NCBI RefSeq assembly: GCF_003334305.1
Contig: NZ_QOWS01000026.1
Direction: 5' to 3' (one strand)
Origin: Escherichia coli
GTDB lineage: Bacteria > Pseudomonadota > Gammaproteobacteria > Enterobacterales > Enterobacteriaceae
DNA length: 64,000 bases
The notes under the pieces are model-generated. The model was not told where the DNA came from and did no database searches. It worked only from the letters and a program-made list of their open reading frames with translations. Shown here piece after piece: positions 3,971-31,052 of this stretch. Every line of letters begins with the position of its first letter. Positions within the stretch are counted from its first letter, which is position 1. Made by a program: the position numbers and the translations under genes.

Positions 3971-4815
3971 TCTTTCTGCGAATTGAGATGACGCCACTGG
4001 CTGGGCGTCATCCCGGTTTCCCGGGTAAACACCACCGAAAAATAGTTACTATCTTCAAAGCCACATTCGGTAGAAATATCACTGATTAACAGGCGGCTAT
4101 GCTGGAGAAGATATTGCGCATGACACACTCTGACCTGTCGCAGATATTGATTGATGGTCATTCCAGTCTGCTGGCGAAATTGCTGACGCAAAACGCGCTC
4201 ACTGCACGATGCCTCATCACAAAATTTATCCAGCGCAAAGGGACTTTTCAGGCTAGCCGCCAGCCGGGTAATCAGCTTATCCAGCAACGTTTCGCTGGAT
4301 GTTGGCGGCAACGAATCACTGGTGTAACGATGGCGATTCAGCAACATCACCAACTGCCCGAACAGCAACTCAGCCATTTCGTTAGCAAACGGCACATGCT
4401 GACTACTTTCATGCTCAAGCTGACCGATAACCTGCCGCGCCTGCGCCATCCCCACGCTACCTAAGCGCCAGTGTGGTTGCCCTGCGCTGGCGCTAAATCC
4501 CGGAATCGCCCCCTGCCAGTCAAGATTCAGCTTCAGACGCTCCGGGCAATAAATAATATTCTGCAAAACCAGATCGTTAACGGAAGCGTAGGAGTGTTTA
4601 TCGTCAGCATGAATGTAAAAGAGATCGCCACGGGTAATGCGATAAGGGCGATCGTTGAGTACATGCAGGCCATTACCGCGCCAGACAATCACCAGCTCAC
4701 AAAAATCATGTGTATGTTCAGCAAAGACATCTTGCGGATAACGGTCAGCCACAGCGACTGCCTGCTGGTCGCTGGCAAAAAAATCATCTTTGAGAAGTTT
4801 TAACTGATGCGCCAC
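3967..4815 (-). CDS. rhaR: AraC-family rhamnose regulator RhaR
   Basis: ORF track gives 3967..4989; the 282-aa form starts at GTG 4815 (..[12 protein letters not shown]..) with GAGG SD; AraC-type HTH at C-terminus. Confidence 0.9.
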
Positions 4816-4888
4816 CGTGGCTACCTCGGCCAGAGAACGAAGTTGATTATTCGCAATATGGCGTACAAATACGTTGAGAAGATTCGCG

Positions 4889-5725
4889 TTATTGCAGAAA
4901 ACCATCCCGTCCCTGACGAATATCACGCGGTGACCAGTTAAACTCTCGGCGAAAAAGCGTCGAAAAGTGGTTACTGTCGCTGAATCCACAGCGATAGGCG
5001 ATGTCAGTAACGCTGGCCTCGCTGTGGCGTAGCAGATGTCGGGCTTTCATCAGTCGCAGGCGGTTCAGGTATCGCTGAGGCGTCAGTCCCGTTTGCTGCT
5101 TAAGCTGCCGATGTAGCGTACGCAGTGAAAGAGAAAATTGATCCGCCACGGCATCCCAATTCACCTCATCGGCAAAATGGTCCTCCAGCCAGGCCAGAAG
5201 CAAGTTGAGACGTGATGCGCTGTTTTCCAGGTTCTCCTGCAAACTGCTTTTACGCAGCAAGAGCAGTAATTGCATAAACAAGATCTCGCGACTGGCGGTC
5301 GAGGGTAAATCATTTTCCCCTTCCTGCTGTTCCATCTGTGCAACCAGCTGTCGCACCTGCTGCAATACGCTGTGGTTAACGCGCCAGTGAGACGGATACT
5401 GCCCATCCAGCTCTTGTGGCAGCAACTGATTCAGCCCGGCGAGAAACTGAAATCGATCCGGCGAGCGATACAGCACATTGGTCAGACACAGATTATCGGT
5501 ATGTTCATACAGATGCCGATCATGATCGCGTACGAAACAGACCGTGCCACCGGTGATGGTATAGGGCTGCCCATTAAACACATGAATACCCGTGCCATGT
5601 TCGACAATCACAATTTCATGAAAATCATGATGATGTTCAGGAAAATCCGCCTGCGGGAGCCGGGGTTCTATCGCCACGGACGCGTTACCAGACGGAAAGA
5701 AATCCACACTATGTAATACGGTCAT
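4889..5725 (-). CDS. rhaS: AraC-family rhamnose regulator RhaS
   Basis: 278 aa [44 protein letters not shown]..., recognised as RhaS. Confidence 0.95.
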
Positions 5726-8738
<3,013 letters not shown>

Positions 8739-17359: not shown

Positions 17360-20300
17360 ATGCAGGTCAGCAGAAGGCAGTTCTTTAAGATCTGCGCTGG
17401 CGGTATGGCAGGCACCACGGCAGCGGCACTGGGTTTTGCACCCAGCGTAGCGCTCGCGGAAACCCGGCAGTATAAACTGCTGCGCACCCGCGAAACCCGT
17501 AATACCTGCACCTATTGTTCCGTAGGCTGTGGGCTGTTGATGTACAGCCTCGGTGACGGAGCAAAAAACGCCAAAGCATCTATCTTCCATATCGAAGGCG
17601 ATCCGGATCACCCGGTCAACCGCGGTGCACTTTGTCCGAAAGGCGCTGGCCTGGTGGATTTCATCCACTCCGAAAGCCGTCTGAAGTTTCCGGAATACCG
17701 TGCGCCAGGTTCTGATAAATGGCAGCAAATCAGTTGGGAAGAGGCGTTTGATCGCATCGCCAAACTGATGAAAGAAGACCGCGATGCTAACTACATTGCG
17801 CAAAACGCCGAAGGCGTGACTGTTAACCGCTGGCTCTCCACCGGGATGCTGTGTGCTTCCGCGTCGAGTAACGAAACCGGCTATTTAACGCAAAAATTCT
17901 CCCGCGCGCTGGGTATGCTCGCGGTCGACAACCAGGCGCGTGTCTGACACGGACCAACGGTAGCAAGTCTTGCTCCAACATTTGGTCGCGGTGCGATGAC
18001 CAACCACTGGGTCGACATCAAGAACGCCAACCTCGTCGTGGTGATGGGCGGTAACGCCGCTGAAGCTCACCCGGTCGGGTTCCGCTGGGCGATGGAAGCC
18101 AAAATTCACAACGGCGCGAAGCTGATTGTGATCGATCCTCGCTTTACGCGTACGGCGGCGGTAGCTGACTACTATGCCCCTATTCGTTCCGGTACTGACA
18201 TTGCTTTCCTGTCAGGCGTATTGCTGTACCTGCTGAACAATGAAAAATTCAACCGCGAATACACCGAAGCCTATACCAACGCAAGCCTGATAGTGCGTGA
18301 GGATTACGGCTTTGAAGATGGCCTGTTCACCGGCTACGACGCGGAAAAACGCAAGTACGATAAATCCTCCTGGACTTATGAACTGGACGAAAACGGCTTC
18401 GCCAAACGCGATACCACGCTGCAACATCCGCGCTGCGTGTGGAACTTGCTGAAACAGCACGTTTCCCGCTACACGCCAGATGTGGTTGAAAACATCTGTG
18501 GTACGCCAAAAGACGCGTTCCTGAAAGTCTGCGAATACATCGCAGAAACCAGTGCTCACGATAAAACTGCCTCGTTCCTCTATGCCCTCGGCTGGACGCA
18601 ACACTCCGTTGGTGCGCAAAACATTCGTACGATGGCGATGATCCAGCTGCTGCTCGGCAATATGGGGATGGCCGGCGGCGGCGTTAACGCCCTGCGCGGT
18701 CACTCCAATATTCAGGGGCTGACGGACCTGGGGCTGCTGTCGCAGAGTCTGCCAGGTTACATGACGCTGCCAAGCGAGAAGCAGACCGATCTGCAAACCT
18801 ACCTTACCGCCAACACGCCAAAACCGCTGCTGGAAGGCCAGGTAAACTACTGGGGCAACTACCCGAAATTCTTCGTCTCTATGATGAAGGCCTTCTTTGG
18901 TGATAAAGCGACGGCGGAAAATAGCTGGGGCTTTGACTGGTTGCCGAAGTGGGATAAAGGCTACGACGTCCTGCAATACTTCGAGATGATGAAAGAAGGC
19001 AAGGTCAATGGCTATATCTGCCAGGGCTTTAACCCTGTTGCCTCATTCCCGAACAAAAACAAAGTGATCGGTTGTCTGTCGAAACTGAAGTTCCTCGTCA
19101 CCATCGACCCGCTGAACACTGAAACCTCTAACTTCTGGCAGAACCACGGTGAGCTGAACGAAGTTGACTCGTCGAAGATCCAGACCGAAGTGTTCCGTCT
19201 GCCATCGACCTGCTTCGCAGAAGAGAACGGTTCAATCGTTAACTCAGGTCGCTGGTTGCAGTGGCACTGGAAAGGTGCGGACGCCCCGGGGATTGCGCTG
19301 ACTGATGGCGAGATCCTCTCCGGTATCTTCCTGCGCTTGCGCAAGATGTATGCCGAACAGGGTGGCGCGAACCCGGACCAGGTGCTGAACATGACCTGGA
19401 ACTACGCCATTCCGCATGAGCCGAAGTCGGAAGAAGTAGCGATGGAGAGCAACGGTAAGGCGCTGGCCGATATTACCGATCCGGCAACCGGTGCGGTTAT
19501 CGTCAAGAAAGGCCAACAACTTAGCTCGTTCGCCCAATTGCGCGATGACGGTACAACCTCCTGTGGCTGCTGGATTTTCGCCGGTAGCTGGACGCCGGAA
19601 GGCAACCAGATGGCGCGTCGTGATAACGCCGATCCGTCTGGCCTCGGTAACACGCTGGGCTGGGCATGGGCATGGCCGCTTAACCGCCGCATTCTGTATA
19701 ACCGCGCCTCCGCAGATCCGCAGGGTAACCCGTGGGATCCGAAGCGTCAGTTGCTGAAATGGGACGGCACTAAGTGGACCGGCTGGGATATTCCGGACTA
19801 CAGCGCAGCGCCTCCGGGTAGCGGCGTCGGGCCGTTTATCATGCAGCAGGAAGGCATGGGGCGTCTGTTTGCCCTCGATAAGATGGCGGAAGGTCCGTTC
19901 CCGGAACACTACGAGCCGTTTGAAACGCCGCTGGGAACTAACCCGCTGCATCCAAACGTTATCTCGAACCCGGCTGCACGTATCTTTAAAGACGACGCCG
20001 AAGCATTGGGTAAAGCCGATAAGTTCCCGTATGTCGGAACCACCTATCGTCTGACCGAGCATTTCCACTACTGGACCAAACACGCGCTGTTGAACGCGAT
20101 TTTGCAACCAGAGCAGTTTGTGGAAATCGGGGAGTCGCTGGCGAATAAACTTGGCATTGCCCAGGGCGATACCGTGAAAGTCTCCTCCAACCGTGGCTAT
20201 ATCAAGGCCAAAGCGGTGGTGACCAAACGTATTCGTACACTGAAAGTGAACGGCAAAGATATCGATACCATCGGTATTCCGATTCACTGGGGCTATGAAG

Positions 20301-20410
20301 GCGTAGCTAAAAAAGGCTTTATTGCCAATACGTTAACGCCATTCGTTGGTGATGCGAACACGCAGACGCCGGAGTTTAAGTCCTTCCTTGTGAATGTGGA
20401 AAAGGTGTAA
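17360..20410 (+). CDS. fdoG: Formate dehydrogenase-O catalytic subunit (selenoprotein; in-frame UGA at 17945..17947 read as Sec)
   Basis: ORF track shows 17360..17947 and 17996..20410 in the same frame, split only by TGA; flanking residues ..VDNQARV-U-HGPTVASLAPTFGRG.. match the Sec site of FdoG; twin-arginine signal SRRQFFK at N-terminus. Confidence 0.95.
17945..17990 (+). other. UGA-Sec codon and putative SECIS hairpin
   Basis: In-frame TGA followed by a short hairpin (gcaag/cttgc) within the ~40 nt window where bacterial SECIS elements lie. Confidence 0.65.
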
Positions 20411-20422
20411 CGGAGACGACAT

Positions 20423-21325
20423 ATGGCTTATCAATCTCAAGATATCATTCGTCGTTCCGCGACTAACGGTCTGACCCCCGCGCCTCAGGCGCGGGACTTC
20501 CAGGAAGAAGTGGCGAAACTCATCGACGTCACCACCTGTATCGGCTGTAAAGCCTGTCAGGTGGCGTGTTCAGAGTGGAACGACATTCGCGATACCGTCG
20601 GCAATAACATTGGGGTGTACGACAACCCCAATGATTTAAGCGCCAAATCGTGGACGGTAATGCGCTTCTCGGAAGTGGAGCAGAACGACAAACTGGAATG
20701 GCTGATCCGCAAAGACGGCTGTATGCACTGTTCCGATCCAGGCTGCCTGAAAGCGTGCCCGGCGGAAGGTGCAATTATTCAGTATGCCAACGGTATCGTC
20801 GACTTCCAGTCCGAGCAGTGCATTGGCTGCGGTTATTGCATTGCGGGCTGTCCGTTCGACATTCCGCGCCTCAACCCGGAAGACAACCGCGTCTACAAAT
20901 GTACGCTGTGCGTTGACCGCGTGGTGGTTGGGCAAGAACCAGCCTGCGTGAAGACCTGCCCAACGGGCGCGATTCACTTCGGTACGAAAGAGTCGATGAA
21001 AACGCTGGCGAGCGAGCGCGTTGCTGAGCTGAAAACCCGCGGTTACGACAATGCGGGTCTGTACGATCCGGCAGGCGTCGGTGGTACACACGTCATGTAC
21101 GTGCTGCACCATGCTGACAAGCCAAATCTGTATCATGGCTTGCCGGAGAACCCGGAAATCAGCGAAACCGTGAAATTCTGGAAAGGCATCTGGAAACCGC
21201 TCGCGGCTGTTGGCTTTGCGGCTACCTTTGCGGCCAGTATCTTCCACTACGTGGGTGTCGGTCCGAACCGTGCGGATGAGGAAGAGAATAATCTGCACGA
21301 AGAGAAAGACGAGGAGCGCAAATGA
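20423..21325 (+). CDS. fdoH: Formate dehydrogenase-O iron-sulfur subunit
   Basis: 300 aa ORF with multiple CxxCxxCxxxCP ferredoxin motifs and a C-terminal TM anchor. Confidence 0.95.
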
Positions 21326-21957
21326 AACGACGTGACACCATCGTGCGCTACACCGCGCCGGAACGTATCAACCACTGGATCACCGCCTTCTGCTTCATCC
21401 TGGCGGCGGTGAGCGGGCTGGGCTTTTTGTTCCCGTCCTTCAACTGGTTGATGCAAATCATGGGCACACCGCAGCTGGCGCGAATTCTGCACCCGTTTGT
21501 CGGCGTGGTTATGTTTGCCTCGTTCATCATCATGTTTTTCCGTTACTGGCATCACAACCTAATCAATCGGGATGATATCTTTTGGGCGAAGAATATTCGT
21601 AAGATCGTCGTCAACGAGGAAGTAGGTGACACCGGGCGTTATAACTTCGGTCAGAAATGCGTTTTCTGGGCGGCGATTATTTTCCTGGTTCTGCTGCTGG
21701 TGAGCGGCGTGATTATCTGGCGTCCTTATTTTGCGCCTGCTTTCTCAATCCCGGTGATCCGATTCGCGTTAATGCTGCATTCATTTGCCGCAGTGGCGTT
21801 AATTGTGGTTATCATGGTGCATATCTACGCCGCCCTTTGGGTGAAAGGCACGATTACCGCCATGGTGGAAGGATGGGTTACCAGCGCCTGGGCGAAGAAA
21901 CATCACCCGCGCTGGTACCGTGAGGTCCGCAAGACAACGGAAAAGAAAGCTGAATGA
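21322..21957 (+). CDS. fdoI: Formate dehydrogenase-O cytochrome b556 subunit
   Basis: 211 aa polytopic membrane [26 protein letters not shown]...; ATGA overlap with fdoH. Confidence 0.95.
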
Positions 21958-22883
21958 GTATTCGCATAATCCCGCAAGATGAGCTGGGTTCAAGCGAGAA
22001 ACGTACGGCGGATATGATTCCGCCGTTATTGTTCCCTCGGCTCAAGAATTTATACAACCGCCGCGCCGAGCGTCTGCGCGAGCTGGCAGAAAATAATCCG
22101 CTGGGTGATTACCTGCGCTTTGCTGCGCTTATCGCCCACGCCCAGGAAGTGGTGCTGTACGACCATCCGCTGGAGATGGATCTGACCGCGCGCATTAAAG
22201 AAGCCAGCGCACAGGGCAAGCCCCCGCTGGATATTCACGTTCTGCCGCGTGATAAGCACTGGCAAAAGCTGCTGATGGCGCTGATTGCTGAGCTGAAACC
22301 TGAAATGAGCGGCCCGGCGCTGGCAGTGATTGAGAATCTGGAGAAGGCATCGACTCAGGAGCTGGAAGATATGGCCAGCGCACTGTTTGCCTCTGATTTC
22401 TCATCCGTCAGCAGCGATAAAGCGCCGTTTATCTGGGCTGCACTGTCGCTCTACTGGGCGCAGATGGCCAATCTGATCCCCGGCAAAGCCCGCGCTGAAT
22501 ACGGCGAGCAACGTCAATATTGCCCGGTTTGTGGTTCTATGCCGGTGTCCAGCATGGTGCAAATTGGCACCACTCAGGGTCTGCGTTACCTGCACTGCAA
22601 CCTGTGTGAAACCGAATGGCACGTAGTGCGCGTAAAATGCAGCAACTGCGAGCAGAGCGGCAAACTGCATTACTGGTCGCTGGATGACGAACAGGCCGCG
22701 ATTAAAGCCGAAAGCTGCGATGACTGTGGCACTTACCTGAAGATTCTTTATCAGGAAAAAGAACCGAAAGTTGAAGCCGTGGCAGATGACCTCGCTTCTC
22801 TGGTACTGGACGCGCGAATGGAGCAAGAAGGCTATGCCCGCAGTTCCATCAACCCGTTCCTGTTTCCGGGTGAAGGGGAGTAA
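21954..22883 (+). CDS. fdhE: Formate dehydrogenase formation protein FdhE
   Basis: 309 aa ORF with paired CxxC motifs; ATGA overlap with fdoI. Confidence 0.95.
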
Positions 22884-23127
22884 TCTCTGACGTTTTCCGG
22901 GTGGCGCTGGTCGCCCGGATTACAGCTCATAGGGTGTGACGACACCATCTCTCGTATTCCGCGTTACCCATTCAAGATCATGCCGCAATTGTCTGTTTGC
23001 CTCGTTCTTCCCTCCAACACATCGATAAGGTTATGGGTATGTCACTGATGACAAGCGTATGATTGCCTGATGCGCTGCGCTTATCAGCCCTACCAATAAA
23101 CTTCAATATATTGAATTTGCATGACTT

Positions 23128-23161
23128 TGTAGGCCGGATAAGGCGTTCACGCCGCATCCGG
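23128..23161. repeat. REP element
   Basis: gtaggccggataaggcgttcacgccgcatccggc, between convergent fdhE and yiiF. Confidence 0.75.
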
Positions 23162-23212
23162 CATGAACAACGCGCACGTTGTCAGCAATCTGATTGACAT
23201 CATTTTTTCCCA

Positions 23213-23431
23213 TTACCATTCCTCGCGCAGCTTACGCTGATATTCGACACCATCTTCCTCACACCCTTGCCAGATGCCAGGAACACTGGTTCTTGCTGTT
23301 TGCGATTGATTTATCAGGTATTGATCTACCGCTTCCCTTAATAGGTCCGCACGAGGAAGATTACGCTGCACCTCGAGATCATCAAGTTGCTTAATCACCT
23401 CATTCGATAAATCGAGTAAAATTCTGCCCAT
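23213..23431 (-). CDS. yiiF: Ribbon-helix-helix (CopG-like) small protein YiiF
   Basis: 72 aa from ATG 23431 ([39 protein letters not shown]...); the in-frame ATG at 23455 is an alternative start. Confidence 0.8.
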
Positions 23432-23540
23432 ATCTATACCTGCCAGAGAGTTCATAAATATCTCGCCAATATCATTTTTGAATCTATGGAGAGAAAAGTA
23501 CCCTTGCCGAATCTTTAAAGAAAGCTCATTTACGCATCAT

Positions 23541-23590
23541 TTTTTATTTTTGCGAGGCGTTTTCCAGATACGATGTAACAGTTGCAGTTA
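23541..23590 (-). repeat. Conserved upstream element, copy 1 (before yiiF)
   Basis: Core tttgcgaggcgttttccaga at 23549..23568 (plus strand); shares an extended ~45 bp match with copy 2, including gttgcagtt. Confidence 0.6.
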
Positions 23591-23673
23591 TTATAAGTTC
23601 AAGTAAAACAGCCTTGTATTAATACCAGAATAAGGGCATCTGTTTTTTTATATTCAAGAATGAAAAATTTTTT

Positions 23674-23892
23674 TCATTCCTTATGCTCCTTACACTGATC
23701 ATCAACACCAACTGTCTCACCCCTTTGCCTGCCTCTCTTTGCTTTACGCACCGGAAATTGCTGCCGCTCCAGATATTGCTCAACCGCTTCGCGTAAAATT
23801 GCAGATCGTGAAACCTTACGCCAGCCCCGAAGCTTGTTCAGCCGTTTAATTGCCTCTTCTGATAAATGAAGAAAAACCGTATTCATCGCCAT
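23674..23892 (-). CDS. yiiE: Ribbon-helix-helix (CopG-like) small protein YiiE
   Basis: 72 aa from ATG 23892 (MAMNTVFLHLSEEAIKRLNKLRGWRKVSRSAILREAVEQYL...) with AAGGTGG SD 5 nt upstream. Confidence 0.85.
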   Translation of the reverse strand: MAMNTVFLHLSEEAIKRLNKLRGWRKVSRSAILREAVEQYLERQQFPVRKAKRGRQRGETVGVDDQCKEHKE

Positions 23893-23979
23893 TACCACCA
23901 CCTTACATATATTACTCATTAATGTATGTGCGAAAATTACGCCGGAAAATCATTTAAAAAAAGCGGATTTTTGCATGTT

Positions 23980-24029
23980 GTTTTGTTTTTGCGAGGTGTT
24001 TTCCAGAAATAATAAGAGTGTTGCAGTTG
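23980..24029 (-). repeat. Conserved upstream element, copy 2 (before yiiE)
   Basis: Core tttgcgaggtgttttccaga at 23988..24007, then gttgcagtt at 24020..24028. Confidence 0.6.
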
Positions 24030-24318
24030 TTTCATTTATTACTCAAAAATGGTTTAGTTATCGCCCAGGATGAGTTATGGATGCTATGAATATATTATAT
24101 TCAGGGATGTTTATTTTTTGATTGGATCTTTATTTGCATAATCTGAATGGTGTACCCGAAAAATGTCAGCATCCTAACAGCACCCGGATTTAAGGTGAAA
24201 TTAATCATCCATCACAGACCGGTCAGTACTGCCACCAACCGGTCTTTACTTGTTCATCGTTATAATTTTGTTGGTAACAGTTCGGGAAACAAGGAATTCC
24301 TTCCGGAACCCCCCGGTA

Positions 24319-24411
24319 TCATCCGATAGCATTGACGTCAATCATCAGCGCGACGATGAGTTTTTTTAATCGCATCATAGGGTGGCGACGTTCAGCACGA
24401 TTACGGGTCAT
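24319..24411 (-). CDS. Hypothetical 30-aa ORF downstream of antitoxin gene
   Basis: ATG at 24411 preceded by CAGGAG with a 7-nt spacer; translation MTRNRAERRHPMMRLKKLIVALMIDVNAIG. Below the ORF-track size cutoff; no homology assessed. Confidence 0.25.
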   Translation of the reverse strand: MTRNRAERRHPMMRLKKLIVALMIDVNAIG

Positions 24412-24496
24412 AGCAAAACTCCTGGGCAGGCGACCACTATGCCGCTTTCACAGGAGTTCTGAATGCTAGTGCTTTCTGTATGGCATAACCATGCCT

Positions 24497-24787
24497 CTAA
24501 CGGTTAAGTGCTTGCAGCACATGTTGCGGATCATTGGCAATCGCTCGCAGCAAAGCCTTTGCAGGCCCGGTCGGTGAACGTCGCCCCTGCTCCCAGTTAC
24601 GCAACGTGTCTACGCTTACAGAAATAAGATCGGCAAATTTAGATTGTGACAACCCTGAAGCGCGGCGTATTTCTTTGATTTTCATAGCATCAACTTCAAA
24701 AGTCCGCGAAGGCTGTCGCGTTCCTTCAATAATTTCATTCATCTGGGCCATGCTGTGAGTCAACCGCTCAAAAAGTGCCTTATCCAT
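24497..24787 (-). CDS. XRE-family HTH antitoxin-like protein (HigA-like)
   Basis: 96 aa ORF; ..IKEIRRASGLSQSKFADLISVSVDTLRNWEQGRRSPTGPAKALLRAI.. is a typical XRE helix-turn-helix; start directly abuts the toxin ORF stop. Confidence 0.75.
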   Translation of the reverse strand: MDKALFERLTHSMAQMNEIIEGTRQPSRTFEVDAMKIKEIRRASGLSQSKFADLISVSVDTLRNWEQGRRSPTGPAKALLRAIANDPQHVLQALNR

Positions 24788-25099
24788 TTACCACCTCGTA
24801 TTTAACAACCGGAGCATTGCTTTTTCCTGGGGAGACAGATCATCTTTAATACCCTTACGATAAATAAGCAGTAATCTGATCTCATAATGTTTAACCTGAT
24901 GAAAGTAAATAACCCTGACACCAGCACGTTTCCCCTTTCCTCCTGAAACCCATCGAACCTTTCTTAACCCACCAGTTTCAGGTATTACCTCACCATAGTC
25001 AGGATTCAAGGCCAGGAAAAACTGAAAACGACTGAATTCATCGTCGGTCAGCAGTTTTTGAACATCTTCAGTAAAAATTTCCGTTTCGATGAAGAGCAT
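24788..25099 (-). CDS. RelE/ParE-superfamily (HigB-like) toxin-like protein
   Basis: 103 aa ORF MLFIETEIFTEDVQKLL...GGLRKVRWVSGGKGKRAGVRVIYFHQ...LLLIYRKGIKDDLSPQEK...; motif pattern matches RelE-like toxins that pair with a downstream HTH antitoxin. Confidence 0.7.
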   Translation of the reverse strand: MLFIETEIFTEDVQKLLTDDEFSRFQFFLALNPDYGEVIPETGGLRKVRWVSGGKGKRAGVRVIYFHQVKHYEIRLLLIYRKGIKDDLSPQEKAMLRLLNTRW

Positions 25100-25136
25100 A
25101 ATTATACGCCATTGGCTTAGAGTAACAATCCTTTTT

Positions 25137-25153
25137 GTACGTCATTGACGTAC
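25137..25153. promoter_or_regulatory. Perfect palindrome, candidate operator of the toxin-antitoxin operon
   Basis: gtacgtcaTtgacgtac (8-bp arms) 38 bp upstream of the toxin start codon. Confidence 0.4.
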
Positions 25154-25215
25154 CCTTGAAACCACTAGCTTACTGATAGTGCTCCAGCAAAACCACGTCT
25201 CTGCCGGGTTTGTCT

Positions 25216-25240
25216 TTAGATTTGCGAGGCGCTTTCCAGA
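25216..25240 (-). repeat. Conserved upstream element, copy 3 (before toxin gene)
   Basis: Core tttgcgaggcgctttccaga at 25221..25240, about 120 bp upstream of the toxin ATG, in the divergent intergenic region shared with the esterase gene. Confidence 0.55.
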
Positions 25241-25327
25241 TTTTTCACGCCCGTGAATTTCCCTGTATCCATCCAGCAAAAACGGGTGTATAAGACTGTA
25301 CATTCATACAGCAAAATAAGTTCTACT

Positions 25328-26236
25328 ATGGCACTGGAAAAAGGAATTGCAGAGTTAGTCGAAAAGTTTATCGCTGCGGGTCGCCCCTCATCGCGTCAAC
25401 AAAGTATTGCGCAGCGCAGGGAGGGCTATATCGCCAGCGCTGTCCTTGCGGGTGAGACAGAAACGCGGGTAGATATTCAGACTATCGAACTTGAAGGGAT
25501 GACCTTACGAATAGTGTCGCCGCTGAATGCCCCGACATTACTCCCGACGATAATTTATTACTACGGTGGCTGTTTTGTTAGCGGCGGGTTCGCAACTCAC
25601 GACAACCAGCTGCGCCAGTTAGCCTATTACGGGCAATGTCGGGTTATTGCCGTCCAGTATCGGCTGGCACCGGAACATACTTTCCCCGCCGCCCATGATG
25701 ATGCGCAACGAGGTGCAGAAATAGTCTGGCAACACGCCGAACGACTCGGCGTTGATAAACAACGTATAACTCTTGCCGGTGACAGTGCGGGCGGACATCT
25801 GGCGCTGGTAACTGCTTTGCGATTAAAGCGTGCTGGCGAGTGGCAACCGGCACAACTCATCTTAATTTATCCTATGCTTGATGCGACTGCGCATTTCGAA
25901 AGCTACATACGCAATGGTCACGATTACATCATCACACGCGACACTTTACTGAGCGGCTTTGAGATGTATCTGCCAGGCATTGAACGCAGGCATCCTGAAG
26001 CCAGCCCTCTTTGGCGCGATGATTTCAATGGCTTGCCACCTGTACATATCATTACCGCTGAATACGACCCACTTTGCGATGAAGGTGAAGCGTTGTATCA
26101 CCGCATGACAGGGCAAGGAGTGCAATGCACCTGCCAACGCTACCTTGGCGTTATCCACGGATTTTTTCAGTTAGGTGGTATCAGCGAGGCCGCGCGATCG
26201 GCACTACGGGATGTTGCCTGGAGAGCGGGAAGGTAA
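25328..26236 (+). CDS. Alpha/beta-hydrolase fold esterase/lipase (HSL-like family)
   Basis: ORF track 25253..26236 (GTG); first ATG at 25328 (MALEKGIAELV...). Contains GDSAGG nucleophile elbow, acidic residue in EYDPL and His in GVIHGF; oxyanion-hole region reads YYGGCF rather than HGGG. Confidence 0.7.
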   Translation: MALEKGIAELVEKFIAAGRPSSRQQSIAQRREGYIASAVLAGETETRVDIQTIELEGMTLRIVSPLNAPTLLPTIIYYYGGCFVSGGFATHDNQLRQLAYYGQCRVIAVQYRLAPEHTFPAAHDDAQRGAEIVWQHAERLGVDKQRITLAGDSAGGHLALVTALRLKRAGEWQPAQLILIYPMLDATAHFESYIRNGHDYIITRDTLLSGFEMYLPGIERRHPEASPLWRDDFNGLPPVHIITAEYDPLCDEGEALYHRMTGQGVQCTCQRYLGVIHGFFQLGGISEAARSALRDVAWRAGR

Positions 26237-26251
26237 CTTCGGACCTGGGCC

Positions 26252-26284
26252 CTGAAAAGGTTTTCAGATTGAAAACCTTTTCAG
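26252..26284. terminator. Strong inverted repeat between convergent esterase gene and yiiD
   Basis: 12-bp perfect arms gaaaaggttttc / gaaaaccttttc with loop agatt; no clear U-tract on either strand. Confidence 0.35.
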
Positions 26285-26299
26285 TCAAGTAAAACGCCC

Positions 26300-27289
26300 C
26301 TACTCTTCTTCGTTCCCGCCCTCTTCATACGGGCCAAATGGCTTCGCGGGCAGAACGATATACGTGCCTTCAAACACTGCACCCGGCGTCTCGTCGCCAA
26401 AGATTTCAACTTGCATCTGCACCCGTGCTTTTCGTCCGCGCGCCAGACGGTCGAGATCGCCGCTTAAGGCACCAAGGTCGGCTATCGCATGAGGTTTACC
26501 GCTAATCGGCTTGCTGTAGCGGATATGCGCATCCGCCAGAATAATCGTTCCGCCGAGATGGCGTTCGCGCAGCATCAGCCAGATAAGCCCCCAACCGGTG
26601 AGCGTCGCCAGCGAGAATAAACTCCCGGCAAACAGCGTATGGTGCGGATTCTGATTGCCGGTTTCCGGCATGGTGGTGATAAATTTTTGCCCGGTATATT
26701 GTTGAATGCGCACGCCCATTTTTTCGCTTAATGGAATGTGTTCATACCACGCCTGTTGCAGCTGGGCGCACCAGTCACCGCGATGCAGAATATCATCCAG
26801 AGTGGCAACGGGTTTAATCATCAAAAAATGGCGAATCGGCGTGGTAGTTGGGGTGGTGATCTCCCCCTGATTAATGAATCCCAGCTTGGCGAAAAACTCC
26901 ACCGCGTCTTCACGGGCGCTACAGGTCACGCGCTTAACGCCTTCCTGACGCGCCACCGACTCCAGGGTCATCGCCATCAGCGTTCCTAACCCTTTGTCCT
27001 GCACGTCGGGATGAACGGCCATAAAGCGAATGGACGCTTCATTGTCGGCATTAATATACAATCGGCCTACCGCCACCAGATTACCCTGCTCGTCGACGAC
27101 CATCTGGTGATGCGCCATCGCATCCCACGCGTCGCGTTCCGAACCTTTTGGTTGATGCAGGGGCTTACGCAACATTTCCCAGCGAAACTGATAGTAACGC
27201 TCTAATTCTTCTTCTGTTTGTGGAACCCGAAGGTGATACATAGCGATACTCTCTCTTGTTTCCCGTGACAACCCTGGAAGCTGGCTCAT
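26300..27289 (-). CDS. yiiD: GNAT acetyltransferase / thioesterase fusion protein YiiD (FabY)
   Basis: 329 aa [43 protein letters not shown]..., recognised as YiiD. Confidence 0.92.
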
Positions 27290-27723
27290 ACCTGCAACCA
27301 GAATGTCACGGGGCCATCATTGACCAGCGATACCTGCATATCGGCAGCGAAGCGTCCTGTTTGCGTGTTCATCTCTTGCTGGCGGCAGCGTTCGACGAAA
27401 TAGTCATATAACGCCTCTGCGCGATCCGGTGATGCGCCTTTGGAGAAACTTGGGCGCATCCCTCGTTCGGTATCTGCGGCGAGGGTAAACTGGGAAACCA
27501 CCAGTACACTGCCGCCCGCCTGTTGCACGTTGAGATTCATCTTGCCTTCGGCATCGCTAAAGATGCGGTAGCCGAGCACACGCTCGCACAGACGGTTTGC
27601 TTTCTGTTCGTCGTCATCCTTTTCGACACCCAATAACACCAAAAGTCCCGCGCCAATTTCGCCCGTCACTTCTCCCTCCACGGTGACGCTGGCACGGGTT
27701 ACGCGTTGAATTAATGCAATCAT
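27286..27723 (-). CDS. dtd: D-aminoacyl-tRNA deacylase
   Basis: 145 aa [40 protein letters not shown]...; 4-nt overlap with yiiD. Confidence 0.95.
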
Positions 27724-28592
27724 GGTTCGTCGTCTTCTTCTTGTTCAGCTGCTTGTTTTAGTTTGCGGTATTCCCCGAGAGTGACAGTAATTTCCGCGCC
27801 AAGCAAGACGATACACCATGTCCAGTAGACCCAAACAAAGAGAATGGGGATCACCGCCAGCACGCCGTAAATGAGCTGATATGACGGGAACATGGTGATA
27901 TAAAGCGCGAAACCTTTCTTTCCTGCTTCGAACAGGAGTGCAGCGACAAACGCGCCGACAATCGCGTCGCGGTTAGGTACGCGGATGGTAGGAACAATGC
28001 TGTACAGCAACCAGAAGGAGATCCACGACAACAGCAGCGGAAAAATACGCAGCACGTTGTCGATGACAGTATTGAGATCGCTCGCCCAGCGCAGGGAGAG
28101 CAAATAGGAACTGATCGCCAGACTGGCCCCTGCCAGCAGCGGCCCCAGCGTTAAAATCATCCAGTACACGGCAAACGAGTAAATTTTTGGTCGCGCTCGT
28201 TTACTGCGCCAGATGGTATTCAACGCGCTATCGATGGAGTACATCAACAATAATGCGGTGACGATCAGCCCGCACGCGCCAACGGCGGTCATCTTGTTGG
28301 AATTGGCAACAAATTGTTCGATATACCGCTGAATAACATCGCCAGTAGCAGGCAGAAAGTTGGCAAAAATAAAGTGACGCAACTGAATGCTGACGTCGGA
28401 AAACATGGGAAAAGCGGCGAAAAGCGCAAAAACAACGGCAACCAGCGGCACTAATGAGAGCAAAGACACATAGGCAAGGTTACCTGCCAGGGTTGTCATG
28501 TTGTCCTCATCAATACGTTGCCAGAGTAGTTTTAGCCAGGCCCATAGTGGACGAGTACGGTGCCTGGCTTTGTCCTGAATGGTTTTTAGCAT
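27720..28592 (-). CDS. yihY: YihY/BrkB-family inner membrane protein
   Basis: 290 aa polytopic membrane ORF; overlaps dtd start by 4 nt. Confidence 0.9.
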
Positions 28593-29185
28593 AACACCTT
28601 CGCGAAATAGTCCGGGATGGTGGTTTTATCTTTCACCAGAATACTGGTAATGCCCAGCTGATTGGCTCCTTCTATATTATCGGCGTTATCGTCGAAAAAG
28701 ACCGTATCGCTGGGTGAAAAACCTTCCGCCTGCAAAACATGCTGGTAAATTCGTGCTTCAGGTTTGCGCATCCCCAGATCTTGCGACAGATAGATATGGT
28801 CAGCAGCATCACGAATTTCCGGGTATTCTTCCGGCCAGAAGGTGGTATGCAGGCGGTTGGTATTGGAAAGCACCACCACGCGATGCCCCTGCTCACGCAG
28901 TTTATGCATGATGGCGATCACTTCCGGGCGCAGCGCAACAAACACCGCCTGCCAGCCGTGAGAGAACTGCTCGTAGCTTAGCGGTAGAGCCATCTCATGA
29001 CACAGCGCCTCTGCGAACGCTTCGTCGCTAATTTCCCCACGCTCATGCTGATGAAACGCCTCCCCCATATGAAAACTCTTCTTAAGCGATGCCAGCGGAA
29101 TACGCGTTAAATCGCTCCAGGCTCCCAGCACACGGTTAAAGTCGATATCGACAATCACATTACCTAAATCAAAGATATAGAGCAT
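28586..29185 (-). CDS. yihX: HAD-family alpha-D-glucose-1-phosphate phosphatase
   Basis: 199 aa from ATG 29185 ([19 protein letters not shown]...) with GGAGG SD; HAD motif DxGxV at N-terminus. Confidence 0.92.
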
Positions 29186-29283
29186 TTTTGCCTCCTTTCG
29201 CGCCACAAGAAATTAACTGTAGCGGGAAAGGATGGGTTTGGCTATGTGGCAAGGTATGAAGCCAGGTTAACGGTCACAAAAAT

Positions 29284-30069
29284 CTACGCGTCTTCCTGGG
29301 GAAGAATGATTTCAATTTGGCTGTCTTGTAAGCGTGATTTTAGCGCAGCGGGCGGCAGCTCGTCGGTAAAGAGCGCAGTGACCTGTGCCACGTTACCAAT
29401 TTCAACCGCCGCCGAAGCATGATACTTAGTGTGATCGGCGACCAGCAGAATATTTCTCGCGTGCGCCATCATCGTTTTCACCACGTTAGCTTCGTTTACA
29501 TCAAACTCCATCAACGCGCCATCGCTCTCAATCGCCCCAACGCTTGTTACCAGATAATCAGCACGAAAATCAGCCACAAAGGACGCCGCTGAAGGGCCAA
29601 TGATCCCGCTATTATGAGAGCGCAACGTACCGCCGGGCACCATCACTTCAAAGCGCGGGTTGTGGTAAAGAATATGCGCCACACGCAGGCTGTTGGTGAT
29701 TATCCGCAAATGATTATGGTTAAGTAACGCCCGGGCAACATGCTCAACAGTCGTACCAATGGTGATAAATATTGTTGAACCATCAGGAATATAGTCTGCC
29801 ACCGCTTCGGCAATCGCTTTTTTTTCCTCGGTTTGCGAAACCTCACGCTGCTCGAACGCCGTATTAACGACGCTGGAAGCCCGACCCGCGCCACCGTGAT
29901 GGCGCGTAATCAGGCCTTGCTCGCTTAATTTACGAATATCCCGGCGGACCGTCTGCGTGGAGACATCCAGCAGATTTGCCAGCTCATCAATATTCATATA
30001 CCCACGCTCGGCGATCAGCATGAGGAGTTGGTCGTGCCGCGGGTTACCGGTTAGTTCGGTAAGGCTCAT
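29284..30069 (-). CDS. csqR: DeoR-family repressor of sulfoquinovose catabolism
   Basis: 261 aa from ATG 30069 (MSLTELTGNPRHDQLLMLIAERGYMNIDELA...); DeoR HTH plus sugar-binding domain; K-12 yihW. Confidence 0.92.
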   Translation of the reverse strand: MSLTELTGNPRHDQLLMLIAERGYMNIDELANLLDVSTQTVRRDIRKLSEQGLITRHHGGAGRASSVVNTAFEQREVSQTEEKKAIAEAVADYIPDGSTIFITIGTTVEHVARALLNHNHLRIITNSLRVAHILYHNPRFEVMVPGGTLRSHNSGIIGPSAASFVADFRADYLVTSVGAIESDGALMEFDVNEANVVKTMMAHARNILLVADHTKYHASAAVEIGNVAQVTALFTDELPPAALKSRLQDSQIEIILPQEDA

Positions 30070-30102
30070 GAAAATTCCTCGAAAAACCATCACCCTGGCA
30101 TT

Positions 30103-30999
30103 TTATACAAAAAGTGACAAAAAAGATCGGGTTTGATCACAGTCAGGGATCCCGGCTCGTCCACCGGGACGTGTGCATTTTAACGCCGCTACACCGCTGG
30201 CGAAGCGGACTGACTCCGCTAAATCCCCACTTGTTGCCAGCGCCACCGCCAAAGCGCCGTGAAAAACATCACCCGCACCTGTGGTATCTACCACATCAAC
30301 TTTGAAGGCCGGTTGATGCTGACGCCCACCATTTTCCAGCCAGTCGCAGCCTGCGCTACCCTGGGTCACATAGACATGACCATTTGTGAGCGTTTGTGCC
30401 TGTTTTAGCGCACTGGCCATCTCTTTCACGCCCGTTAAGCGCGCCAGACCCGGTTCTGAAAAGGCCGCGTGATCGCTTAATGCCACCAGCTCACTGATAT
30501 CCTGCGGCGTAATGTCCCCGTCCAGAACGGTCATCACACCCGCCTGACGGGCCAGGGTGAAGGCTTTTTTAGCGCCGTCGTGCCAGCGTACATCTGCCAG
30601 CACAACATCCCACTGAGAGAAATCAATTTCCTCCAACCACTCTGCGTCAGGCAGCAGATCCGGGCTGGGGTAGTTAATGATTATCCGCTCGCCTTTGGTA
30701 TCCACCATGATGGCGGATTGCGAAGATTTCGCCTGGTTATACCGTTTGGTGTAACGGGTGTTAACGCCCCAGGATTCCAGCTCTGCCAGCAGGCTGTTGC
30801 CCGTGTCGTCATCACCTACGCGACCAATAAAATCGACCTGCGCCCCCAGCCTTGCCGCCGCAACCGCTGCCGTCGCCGCTGGCCCGCCACCAACTTCCGT
30901 ATAATTTCTCGCCACGTATTTACCGCTCTCCGTCGGTAACCCTTCCACGTAATAGATGCGATCCATCACGGTTATACCTACACAAGCAACACGAATCAT
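30103..30999 (-). CDS. yihV: 6-deoxy-6-sulfofructose kinase
   Basis: 298 aa from ATG 30999 (MIRVACVGITVMDRIYYVEG...), PfkB-family kinase. Confidence 0.93.
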   Translation of the reverse strand: MIRVACVGITVMDRIYYVEGLPTESGKYVARNYTEVGGGPAATAAVAAARLGAQVDFIGRVGDDDTGNSLLAELESWGVNTRYTKRYNQAKSSQSAIMVDTKGERIIINYPSPDLLPDAEWLEEIDFSQWDVVLADVRWHDGAKKAFTLARQAGVMTVLDGDITPQDISELVALSDHAAFSEPGLARLTGVKEMASALKQAQTLTNGHVYVTQGSAGCDWLENGGRQHQPAFKVDVVDTTGAGDVFHGALAVALATSGDLAESVRFASGVAALKCTRPGGRAGIPDCDQTRSFLSLFV

Positions 31000-31052
31000 G
31001 GTCATTCCTTAAACATTTTGGGATGCGTTCATTTTAATTTCACCAATTGTTT

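Follow-up and report, generated by a model that had tools for sequence, protein, structure and literature searches.

Stop/start overlaps of the yihX-yihY-dtd-fabY operon of Escherichia coli and the two candidate starts of fabY

Four consecutive genes in a 64,000-nt stretch of Escherichia coli DNA (contig NZ_QOWS01000026.1 of assembly GCF_003334305.1, here called the window) follow one another so closely that the question arises whether they form a single transcription unit in which translation of one gene depends on that of the gene before it. As judged by the list of open reading frames and by direct reading of the sequence, yihX, yihY, dtd and fabY (synonyms yiiD and madA) lie in this order on the minus strand at positions 26300-29185 of the window. 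A preliminary description of this DNA had given the same limits and overlaps of 7, 4 and 4 nt, all of which proved exact when the sequence was read directly (Table 1). The stretch was found in 5426 of the 5426 complete genomes searched and matches E. coli genomes at 100% identity, and yihXY-dtd-yiiD appears as a four-cistron operon in a RegulonDB-derived listing (PMC4421995). The K-12 unit of this name in RegulonDB/EcoCyc has the same genes, order and 7/4/4-nt junctions as the window and encodes proteins 99-100% identical to those of the window, with no essential difference between the two units. The window strain differs from K-12 in the segment downstream of fabY, and the fabY gene annotated by RefSeq in this kind of strain is 16 codons shorter than that of the K-12 record. 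The region is very probably an ordinary, already catalogued core operon of E. coli. The overlaps are real and conserved, yet unsurprising, as slight overlaps are frequent among operon genes, and little is at stake beyond confirming that the stretch is standard core-genome E. coli.

Table 1. Features of the yihX-yihY-dtd-fabY region, in positions of the window.
Feature	Positions	Strand	Description
Promoter-like element upstream of yihX	29216..29244	(-)	-35-like TAGCCA 29244..29239, 17-nt spacer, -10-like TACAGT 29221..29216
yihX Shine-Dalgarno (SD) sequence AAGGAGG	29191..29197	(-)	5 nt before ATG
yihX	ATG 29185 to TAA 28586	(-)	HAD-family alpha-D-glucose-1-phosphate phosphatase, 199 aa; RefSeq agrees
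yihX stop/yihY start	28586-28592	(-)	ATGCTAA, 7 nt, read directly
yihY	ATG 28592 to TGA 27720	(-)	BrkB/YihY (PF03631) inner-membrane protein of unknown function, 290 aa
yihY stop/dtd start	27720-27723	(-)	ATGA, 4 nt, read directly
dtd	ATG 27723 to TGA 27286	(-)	D-aminoacyl-tRNA deacylase, 145 aa
dtd stop/fabY long-form start	27286-27289	(-)	ATGA, 4 nt, read directly
fabY/yiiD/madA	ATG 27289 (329 aa) or ATG 27241 (313 aa) to TAG 26300	(-)	GNAT + hot-dog protein
Codons 2-16 of long FabY (44-nt 'intergenic' under RefSeq)	27242..27285	(-)	Holds purine run AAGAGAGAG 27257..27249
Hairpin	26252..26284	.	Perfect 15 bp, 3-nt loop; between convergent fabY and alpha/beta-hydrolase genes

The products were assigned by comparison with NCBIfam. 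YihX matched the glucose-1-phosphatase equivalog NF006991 over residues 1-199 of 199 (405.8 bits, cut-off 295). A more upstream yihX start at GTG 29206 was rejected, having no SD (+0.8 kcal/mol, as compared with -11.6 for the ATG) and lying outside the full-length family match, which begins at the ATG. YihY matched BrkB/YihY NF002457 over its full length (477.1 bits, cut-off 307) and also TIGR00765, 'yihY_not_rbn'; PF03631 was found on YihY homologues. Residues 1-145 of 146 of the equivalog TIGR00256 were covered by Dtd (256.5 bits, cut-off 101.5). FabY gave GNAT-family matches at residues 52-147 and carries a C-terminal YiiD hot-dog domain (TIGR02447, residues 181-314, 163.5 bits, cut-off 97.1). 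The fusion of a GNAT to a hot-dog domain is the architecture described for FabY/MadA, and malonyl-ACP decarboxylase activity has been reported for the E. coli protein (PMC8666670). The window FabY, 99.4% identical to the K-12 protein, is a predicted malonyl-ACP decarboxylase.

The claim that the four genes constitute one operon is supported by their common strand, the lack of intergenic space, the RegulonDB listing (PMC4421995) and the retention of order and junctions in about 80 species. In a survey of 80 Enterobacteriaceae species loci, the order yihX-yihY-dtd-fabY was present in every locus whose sequence extends far enough. With ~76-81 loci scorable per junction, the yihX-yihY overlap is 7 nt in 72 loci (and 4 nt, with the same ATG, in 2), the yihY-dtd overlap is ATGA in 75 of 78, and the dtd-fabY overlap is ATGA in 73 of 81. 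The ATGA tetranucleotides are held at synonymous and stop-codon choices over ~25 genera.

Short overlaps as such are commonplace. Among the 35 neighbouring same-strand pairs in 50 kb of a near-identical annotated genome, 7 overlap, and in 5 of these the overlap is 4 nt. Consecutive same-strand genes of the bcs and dpp operons in a near-identical reference genome (bcsA-bcsQ, bcsE-bcsF-bcsG, dppF-dppD) likewise have 4-nt overlaps, and the pattern is therefore routine, although those operons, unlike yihX-fabY, encode parts of one machine. Annotation of the record NC_013353.1 was drawn on only from 24497 up, and for the overlap statistics of that record itself; collinearity with the window throughout was rejected, as it fails below ~24000, with fdhE/fdoI in K-12-like order in the window and IS621 and dppA in NC_013353.1. 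As a pattern, the overlaps are thus no more than expected by chance, whereas as a conserved feature they are more than chance. Compact junctions of this kind are a normal, conserved feature of the operon.

A conserved block with the core TTCCCGCTACAGT at 29228..29216 lies upstream of yihX and is a putative promoter. T32, A37 and TTxCCGCTAxAGTxA are invariant in 43 of 43 aligned species, as are the positions -12T, -11A and -7T. The motif occurs once per Enterobacteriaceae locus and always 5' of yihX, whatever gene precedes (csqR in 29 loci, typA in 18 and another gene in 27). In many species, a clear terminator hairpin, that of the preceding gene, stands before it. The element agrees with the consensus at 8 of 12 positions, which is under the scan threshold of 9. 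The conserved spacer, TTTCCCGC, is odd for a plain sigma-70 promoter, and the element could be something else, for example a regulator site. A sigma-S-like extended -10 (GCTACAGTTAA, with C at -13) is a candidate reading of the motif; sigma-32 and sigma-E readings were dropped on unfit spacing or -35 region. Transcription would most likely start at this conserved promoter of the sigma-70 family, ~30-60 nt upstream of yihX, and, as the genes leave no gap that could hold a terminator, the transcript would cover the whole four-gene block. In the literature and the supplementary tables of genome-wide RNA-seq studies, only the RegulonDB-derived operon name was found, with no transcript or translation data for the operon, and an Rfam scan of 23000-31000 at E <= 1 gave no match inside it.

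As to translation, the starts differ widely in the predicted strength of their SD duplex with the 3' end of 16S rRNA. That of yihX (-11.6 kcal/mol) is the strongest of 26 starts tested, and its AAGGAG is conserved in the alignment; this very strong site would load ribosomes onto the message. The yihY start, which precedes the yihX stop by 7 nt, would use an average SD of its own (-6.4 kcal/mol, about the local median of -6.1). By contrast with that median, dtd reaches only -1.9 kcal/mol and has practically no SD. Hence, translation of dtd probably depends on yihY: most of it would come from ribosomes that, having ended at the UGA of yihY, start again at the AUG overlapping it (AUGA). The overlapping ATG of fabY has a badly spaced SD of -3.7 kcal/mol, with SD-like bases only 1-2 nt from the start, and the internal ATG, codon M17 of the long form, has one of -5.2 kcal/mol. 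Translational coupling from yihY to dtd is a plausible reading of these values, and coupling from dtd to fabY is likewise reasonable, given that the ATGA is selectively maintained.

Known parallels are termination-reinitiation at 4-nt overlaps and the classical translationally coupled overlapping pairs of E. coli, such as trpE-trpD and trpB-trpA with their UGAUG/AUGA junctions. The operon studied here shares with them the stop/start overlap, a weak or absent downstream SD (that of dtd) and, presumably, a single mRNA. The trp pairs, however, encode subunits or steps of one pathway, and coupling sets their stoichiometry, whereas the products of the present operon have no known common function and their coupling is putative. 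Phenotypes of yihY knock-outs should be read with care: given the missing ribosome-binding site of dtd, an insertion or a nonsense mutation in yihY will probably have a polar effect on dtd, and perhaps also on fabY.

Whether these overlaps matter for expression can be weighed against an account in which they are a by-product of genome compaction and each gene is initiated independently, from a site inside the preceding gene. The frequency of overlapping pairs in the annotated genome, the average SD of yihY and the additional SD at M17 of fabY all agree with such independence. So does the dtd-fabY junction, where a conserved RNA structure that translation would need to open was sought as a mediator of coupling and rejected (consensus energy -0.98 kcal/mol, no compensatory pairs). 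The near-absence of an SD at dtd and the poor spacing at the overlapping ATG of fabY speak against independent starts, and maintenance of ATGA across ~25 genera, as well as its occurrence at yihY-dtd in distant relatives, points the same way; compaction without coupling is thus unlikely. It is even less probable that the block is not one transcription unit, being served instead by internal promoters in yihX, yihY or dtd (for example, for dtd-fabY) or mainly by read-through from yihV-csqR. A terminator scan detected no terminator between csqR and yihX in the window strain, so that read-through from upstream is possible, and fabY of distant relatives, 130 nt away from dtd, may have its own promoter. 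On the other hand, no minus-strand promoter-like site with at least 9 of 12 consensus matches was found in the operon by a consensus scan, to which weak or alternative-sigma promoters are invisible, and the 3 terminator-like sites found (4.3 expected by chance) are all inside coding sequence. The promoters and terminators between genes that the preliminary description had named as signs against its operon therefore did not emerge beyond chance in either scan. The promoter-like block directly 5' of yihX, irrespective of neighbour and often behind the terminator hairpin of the upstream gene, and the RegulonDB-derived lists, which give the block as one four-gene unit, likewise argue for a single transcript.

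The third overlap requires separate consideration, as public records disagree on where fabY begins. The K-12 reference record has a FabY of 329 aa that starts at the overlapping ATG, whereas in a genome that matches this stretch at 100% identity RefSeq places the start at 27241 (313 aa), so that 44 nt separate the gene from dtd. If the internal ATG is taken as the start, the third overlap disappears. The overlap would then be an annotation artefact and the 44 nt an untranslated spacer with a ribosome-binding site, a reading to which we give some weight but consider doubtful. In its favour, a distant homologue (46% identity) begins exactly at the position equivalent to M17, behind a 130-nt spacer that contains an AAGAGG site, and the reported beginning of the GNAT domain is near residue 19 (PMC8666670). 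Moreover, the purine run A(A/G)AGAGAG that precedes M17 is invariant as a nucleotide sequence and includes the rare Arg codon AGA. The RefSeq pipeline, too, favours the short form. Several features of the Enterobacteriaceae sequences oppose an untranslated spacer. The spacing between the dtd stop and M17 falls into five length classes (44, 47, 32, 50 and 41 nt), every one of them 2 mod 3. Of 65 distinct sequences of this stretch, not one carries an in-frame stop, as compared with 7 and 39 for the two alternative frames. In 77 of 79 sequences, the third base of the final dtd codon is the A needed for the ATG, and the dtd stop is TGA in 78 of 79; of the two exceptions lacking that A, one has TTG and the other a relocated in-frame ATG.

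These comparative data support the overlapping ATG at 27289 as a functional start of fabY. Codon-position diversity in the extension is 0.19, 0.21 and 0.28, and this only mild third-position bias indicates that the 16 extra residues are weakly constrained as protein. The internal start, M17, is the ancestral one and keeps its own SD-like site. FabY of 329 aa would be made by ribosomes restarting at the AUGA in which dtd ends, and FabY of 313 aa by independent initiation at the ancestral start 48 nt downstream, from its own purine-rich site. With this second start and its site, fabY need not depend on dtd. The disagreement between 329 and 313 aa affects residue numbering and the design of constructs for the MadA/FabY enzyme.

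Within the cluster, yihY-dtd is the old core. A first homologue search gave close relatives only, and distant YihY homologues were reached by a representative search. Adjacency of yihY and dtd extends beyond Enterobacteriaceae, usually with the same ATGA overlap, and three contexts of distant homologues show the 4-nt overlap; roughly half of the YihY homologues sampled lack a neighbouring dtd. By contrast, neither yihX nor the tight fabY junction was seen outside Enterobacteriaceae. In CP090981.1, for example, the cluster is glnA-typA-yihY-dtd-fabY, with yihY and dtd adjacent, fabY downstream and typA upstream. As compared with E. coli, the distant clusters have no yihX, and their fabY lies 130 nt from dtd and begins where M17 lies in E. 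coli. The characterisation of the four genes as functionally unrelated accordingly agrees with their known annotations but sits less well with a yihY-dtd pair conserved beyond Enterobacteriaceae. Taken jointly, two further readings can be put forward, decidedly speculative in combination: YihY and Dtd, as an old coupled pair, could act together, for instance in clearing the D-amino acids that are freed from tRNA, and Enterobacteriaceae could make two FabY isoforms, the 329-aa form dependent on dtd translation and the 313-aa form initiated at the ancestral start. If there are two isoforms, part of the FabY output would be tied to translation of dtd.

Immediately downstream of fabY, the preliminary description had placed a putative islet. 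The segment does vary between strains; its hydrolase gene, however, occupies the equivalent position in 50 of 80 related species, and the hydrolase segment has the look of an ancestral feature that K-12 has lost, not of a recent insertion. The hairpin that separates fabY from the convergent alpha/beta-hydrolase gene was missed by the terminator scan because it has no U tract (T run in the DNA). The fold of 26305..26225 has a centroid energy of -19.8 kcal/mol (z = -2.15), and the hairpin is a possible 3'-end or terminator structure.

The four genes, with the coordinates and the 7-, 4- and 4-nt overlaps given for them in the preliminary description, were matched exactly by the ORF list and the sequence. 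All four products score above the curated family cut-off in NCBIfam, as a glucose-1-phosphatase (YihX), a BrkB/YihY membrane protein (YihY), a D-aminoacyl-tRNA deacylase (Dtd) and a GNAT domain fused to a YiiD-type hot-dog domain (FabY). [quoted passage not shown] Several E. coli chromosomes match the 3.6-kb operon stretch at 100% identity, and all 5426 of the complete E. coli genomes searched contain it; the stretch is therefore core genome. The same genes and junctions are annotated in the K-12 reference record, and yihXY-dtd-yiiD is listed among four-cistron operons in a genome-wide study based on RegulonDB transcription units (PMC4421995). The operon is thus already catalogued and is no surprise to a specialist. 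Its earlier interpretation as a translationally coupled unit is sensible and supported in part. The third overlap hinges on a disputed fabY start codon.

Features of the yihX-yihY-dtd-fabY operon and adjacent DNA. Gene coordinates are from the ORF list and sequence; Shine-Dalgarno (SD) strength is the duplex energy with the 3' end of 16S rRNA, in kcal/mol.
Feature	Position	Strand	Size or sequence	SD strength	Remark
-35-like	29244..29239	minus	TAGCCA		upstream of yihX; 17-nt spacer to -10-like
-10-like	29221..29216	minus	TACAGT		upstream of yihX
yihX SD	29197..29191	minus	AAGGAGG
yihX	ATG 29185 - TAA 28586	minus	199 aa	-11.6
yihX/yihY overlap	28586-28592	minus	ATGCTAA, 7 nt
yihY	ATG 28592 - TGA 27720	minus	290 aa	-6.4
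yihY/dtd overlap	27720-27723	minus	ATGA, 4 nt
dtd	ATG 27723 - TGA 27286	minus	145 aa	-1.9
dtd/fabY overlap	27286-27289	minus	ATGA, 4 nt
fabY (yiiD, madA)	ATG 27289 - TAG 26300	minus	329 aa	-3.7	overlapping ATG; paired bases just 1-2 nt from start
fabY, internal ATG	27241	minus	313 aa	-5.2
Neighbouring genes (20), median				-6.1
Hairpin	26252..26284		perfect 15-bp palindrome, 3-nt loop		between convergent fabY and alpha/beta-hydrolase genes
Alpha/beta hydrolase	25328..26236	plus
HigB-like/NadS pair	24497..25099	minus

Overlap as a pattern is routine. An annotated genome with the identical operon sequence has, within 50 kb, overlaps in 7 of 35 same-strand neighbouring pairs, and in five of these the overlap measures 4 nt; bcsA-bcsQ, bcsE-bcsF-bcsG and dppF-dppD are among the overlapping genes. 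For Enterobacteriaceae, 80 loci at species level were scored for junction conservation. Between yihX and yihY, 72 loci overlap by 7 nt and two, with the same ATG, by 4 nt; ATGA joins yihY to dtd in 75 of 78 loci and dtd to fabY in 73 of 81. This comparison indicates that selection maintains the junctions of the operon.

The start codon of fabY, on which the third overlap depends, is disputed between public annotations. The K-12 annotation begins fabY at the overlapping ATG, whereas the RefSeq pipeline, in a genome identical over the operon, begins it at the internal ATG, 44 nt after dtd, and the overlap disappears. Comparison between species supports a function for each of the two starts. For the overlapping start, dtd has GTA as its last codon in 69 loci and ATA in eight, so that the A completing the fabY ATG is retained in 77 of 79; the two loci lacking it have a TTG and a relocated in-frame ATG, respectively, and TGA serves as the dtd stop in 78 of 79. 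Between this stop and the internal ATG lie 44, 47, 32, 50 or 41 nt, lengths that are all 2 mod 3. Of 65 distinct sequences of this segment, none contains an in-frame stop, whereas the counts for the other two frames are 7 and 39. For the internal start, an A(A/G)AGAGAG run before M17, the methionine at this ATG, is invariant at the nucleotide level in Enterobacteriaceae, with use of the rare AGA codon. Moreover, on a chromosome where the gene order is glnA-typA-yihY-dtd-fabY, a FabY homologue of 46% identity begins exactly where M17 of E. coli aligns, after a 130-nt spacer carrying an AAGAGG site. Diversity in the extension is 0.19, 0.21 and 0.28 at codon positions 1, 2 and 3, and the 16 extra residues appear weakly constrained as protein. 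In our reading, the internal start would be the ancestral one, and in Enterobacteriaceae fabY would have shifted up against dtd, acquiring a second, coupled start.

Translational coupling within the operon is plausible, and dtd is the strongest case. The AUG of dtd shares bases with the yihY UGA and, as judged by its duplex energy of -1.9 kcal/mol, dtd is almost devoid of a ribosome-binding site. Given this anatomy and what is established for such junctions, dtd is most likely translated by termination-reinitiation. No conserved RNA structure was found at the dtd-fabY junction, and coupling through unfolding of a hairpin there is therefore unsupported.

A consensus scan of the coding strand over 25900-29700 gave no promoter-like site and three terminator-like sites, all within coding sequence, versus 4.3 expected by chance; no Rfam family matched inside the operon. 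The gene upstream of yihX varies by species: 29 loci have csqR and 18 have typA, and in 27 it is another gene or was not reached. In many species its end is an obvious terminator hairpin. Common to all in the alignment, directly before yihX, is the block TAG(T/C)CAAA - 7 nt - CTTTCCCGCTACAGTTA - ~4 nt - TCCACGGCG - AAGGAG - ATG. Its core, TTNCCGCTANAGT, is found a single time in each locus, in every case upstream of yihX, and is absent from the distant loci. The promoter-like element (29216..29244) matches the consensus at 8 of 12 positions, and -12T, -11A and -7T, the most important positions of a -10 hexamer, are invariant. We infer that this block is the operon's own promoter. The TAGCCAAA-N7-CTTTCCCGCTACAGTTA portion (29216..29244, minus strand) is invariant across genera, the 'spacer' TTTCCCGC included. 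A plain sigma-70 promoter would need no such fixed spacer, and the block may be a sigma-S-like extended -10 or a regulator site.

The history of the cluster was examined in a sample of ten informative genomic contexts, each around a distant YihY homologue (38-52% identity). In five (L084, L085 at 4001..6436, L086, L087 and L094; YihY 41-52% identical) dtd lies immediately downstream of yihY, three of them with the same 4-nt overlap; the other five, one with a long YihY of 436 aa, have no adjacent dtd. In three of the ten typA lies upstream; yihX is absent from all ten. The recurrence of dtd and the lack of yihX in these contexts point to yihY-dtd as the old core of the cluster. Among the loci covered, only those of Enterobacteriaceae showed the yihX gene and the tight fabY junction. 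In Escherichia, Salmonella and some other genera, yihX is now immediately preceded by sulfoquinovose genes, of which csqR is the last. A literature search found no paper on a functional YihY-Dtd link. One metagenome-derived protein (P0004, 434 aa) carries PF03631 (YihY) and PF02580 (Dtd) together; this fusion call probably results from a frameshift at the ATGA junction or from a sequencing error there.

Beyond fabY, the hairpin has a U tract on neither strand and may be a 3'-end or stabilising structure. Homology to K-12 ends right at the fabY stop codon and restarts near 24280, with ~2 kb in the window (~24280..26299), holding the hydrolase gene and the HigB-like/NadS pair, versus ~470 bp of unrelated sequence in the K-12 locus (L002, 6440..~6910). 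In 50 of 80 Enterobacteriaceae species a homologue of the hydrolase, 69-83% identical, is found at the same position, and hence the putative 'islet' noted here earlier is more probably an ancestral segment that K-12 has lost than a recent insertion. Within it, no base separates the HigB-like toxin gene from the NadS-family gene (0-nt gap; stop 24788, start 24787, minus strand). Collinearity with NC_013353.1 (O103:H2 strain 12009) is absent below ~24000 (window ~19500..23500). The window has the K-12-like order yiiF-fdhE-fdoI, while NC_013353.1 has an IS621 element and dppA beside yiiF, a difference due to rearrangement in NC_013353.1. Sub-threshold Rfam matches at 23086..23168 to naRNA4 (38.2 bits; gathering score 59.5) and ES036 (35.9 bits; gathering score 37.6), both REP-derived sRNA families, are probably REP elements near yiiF.
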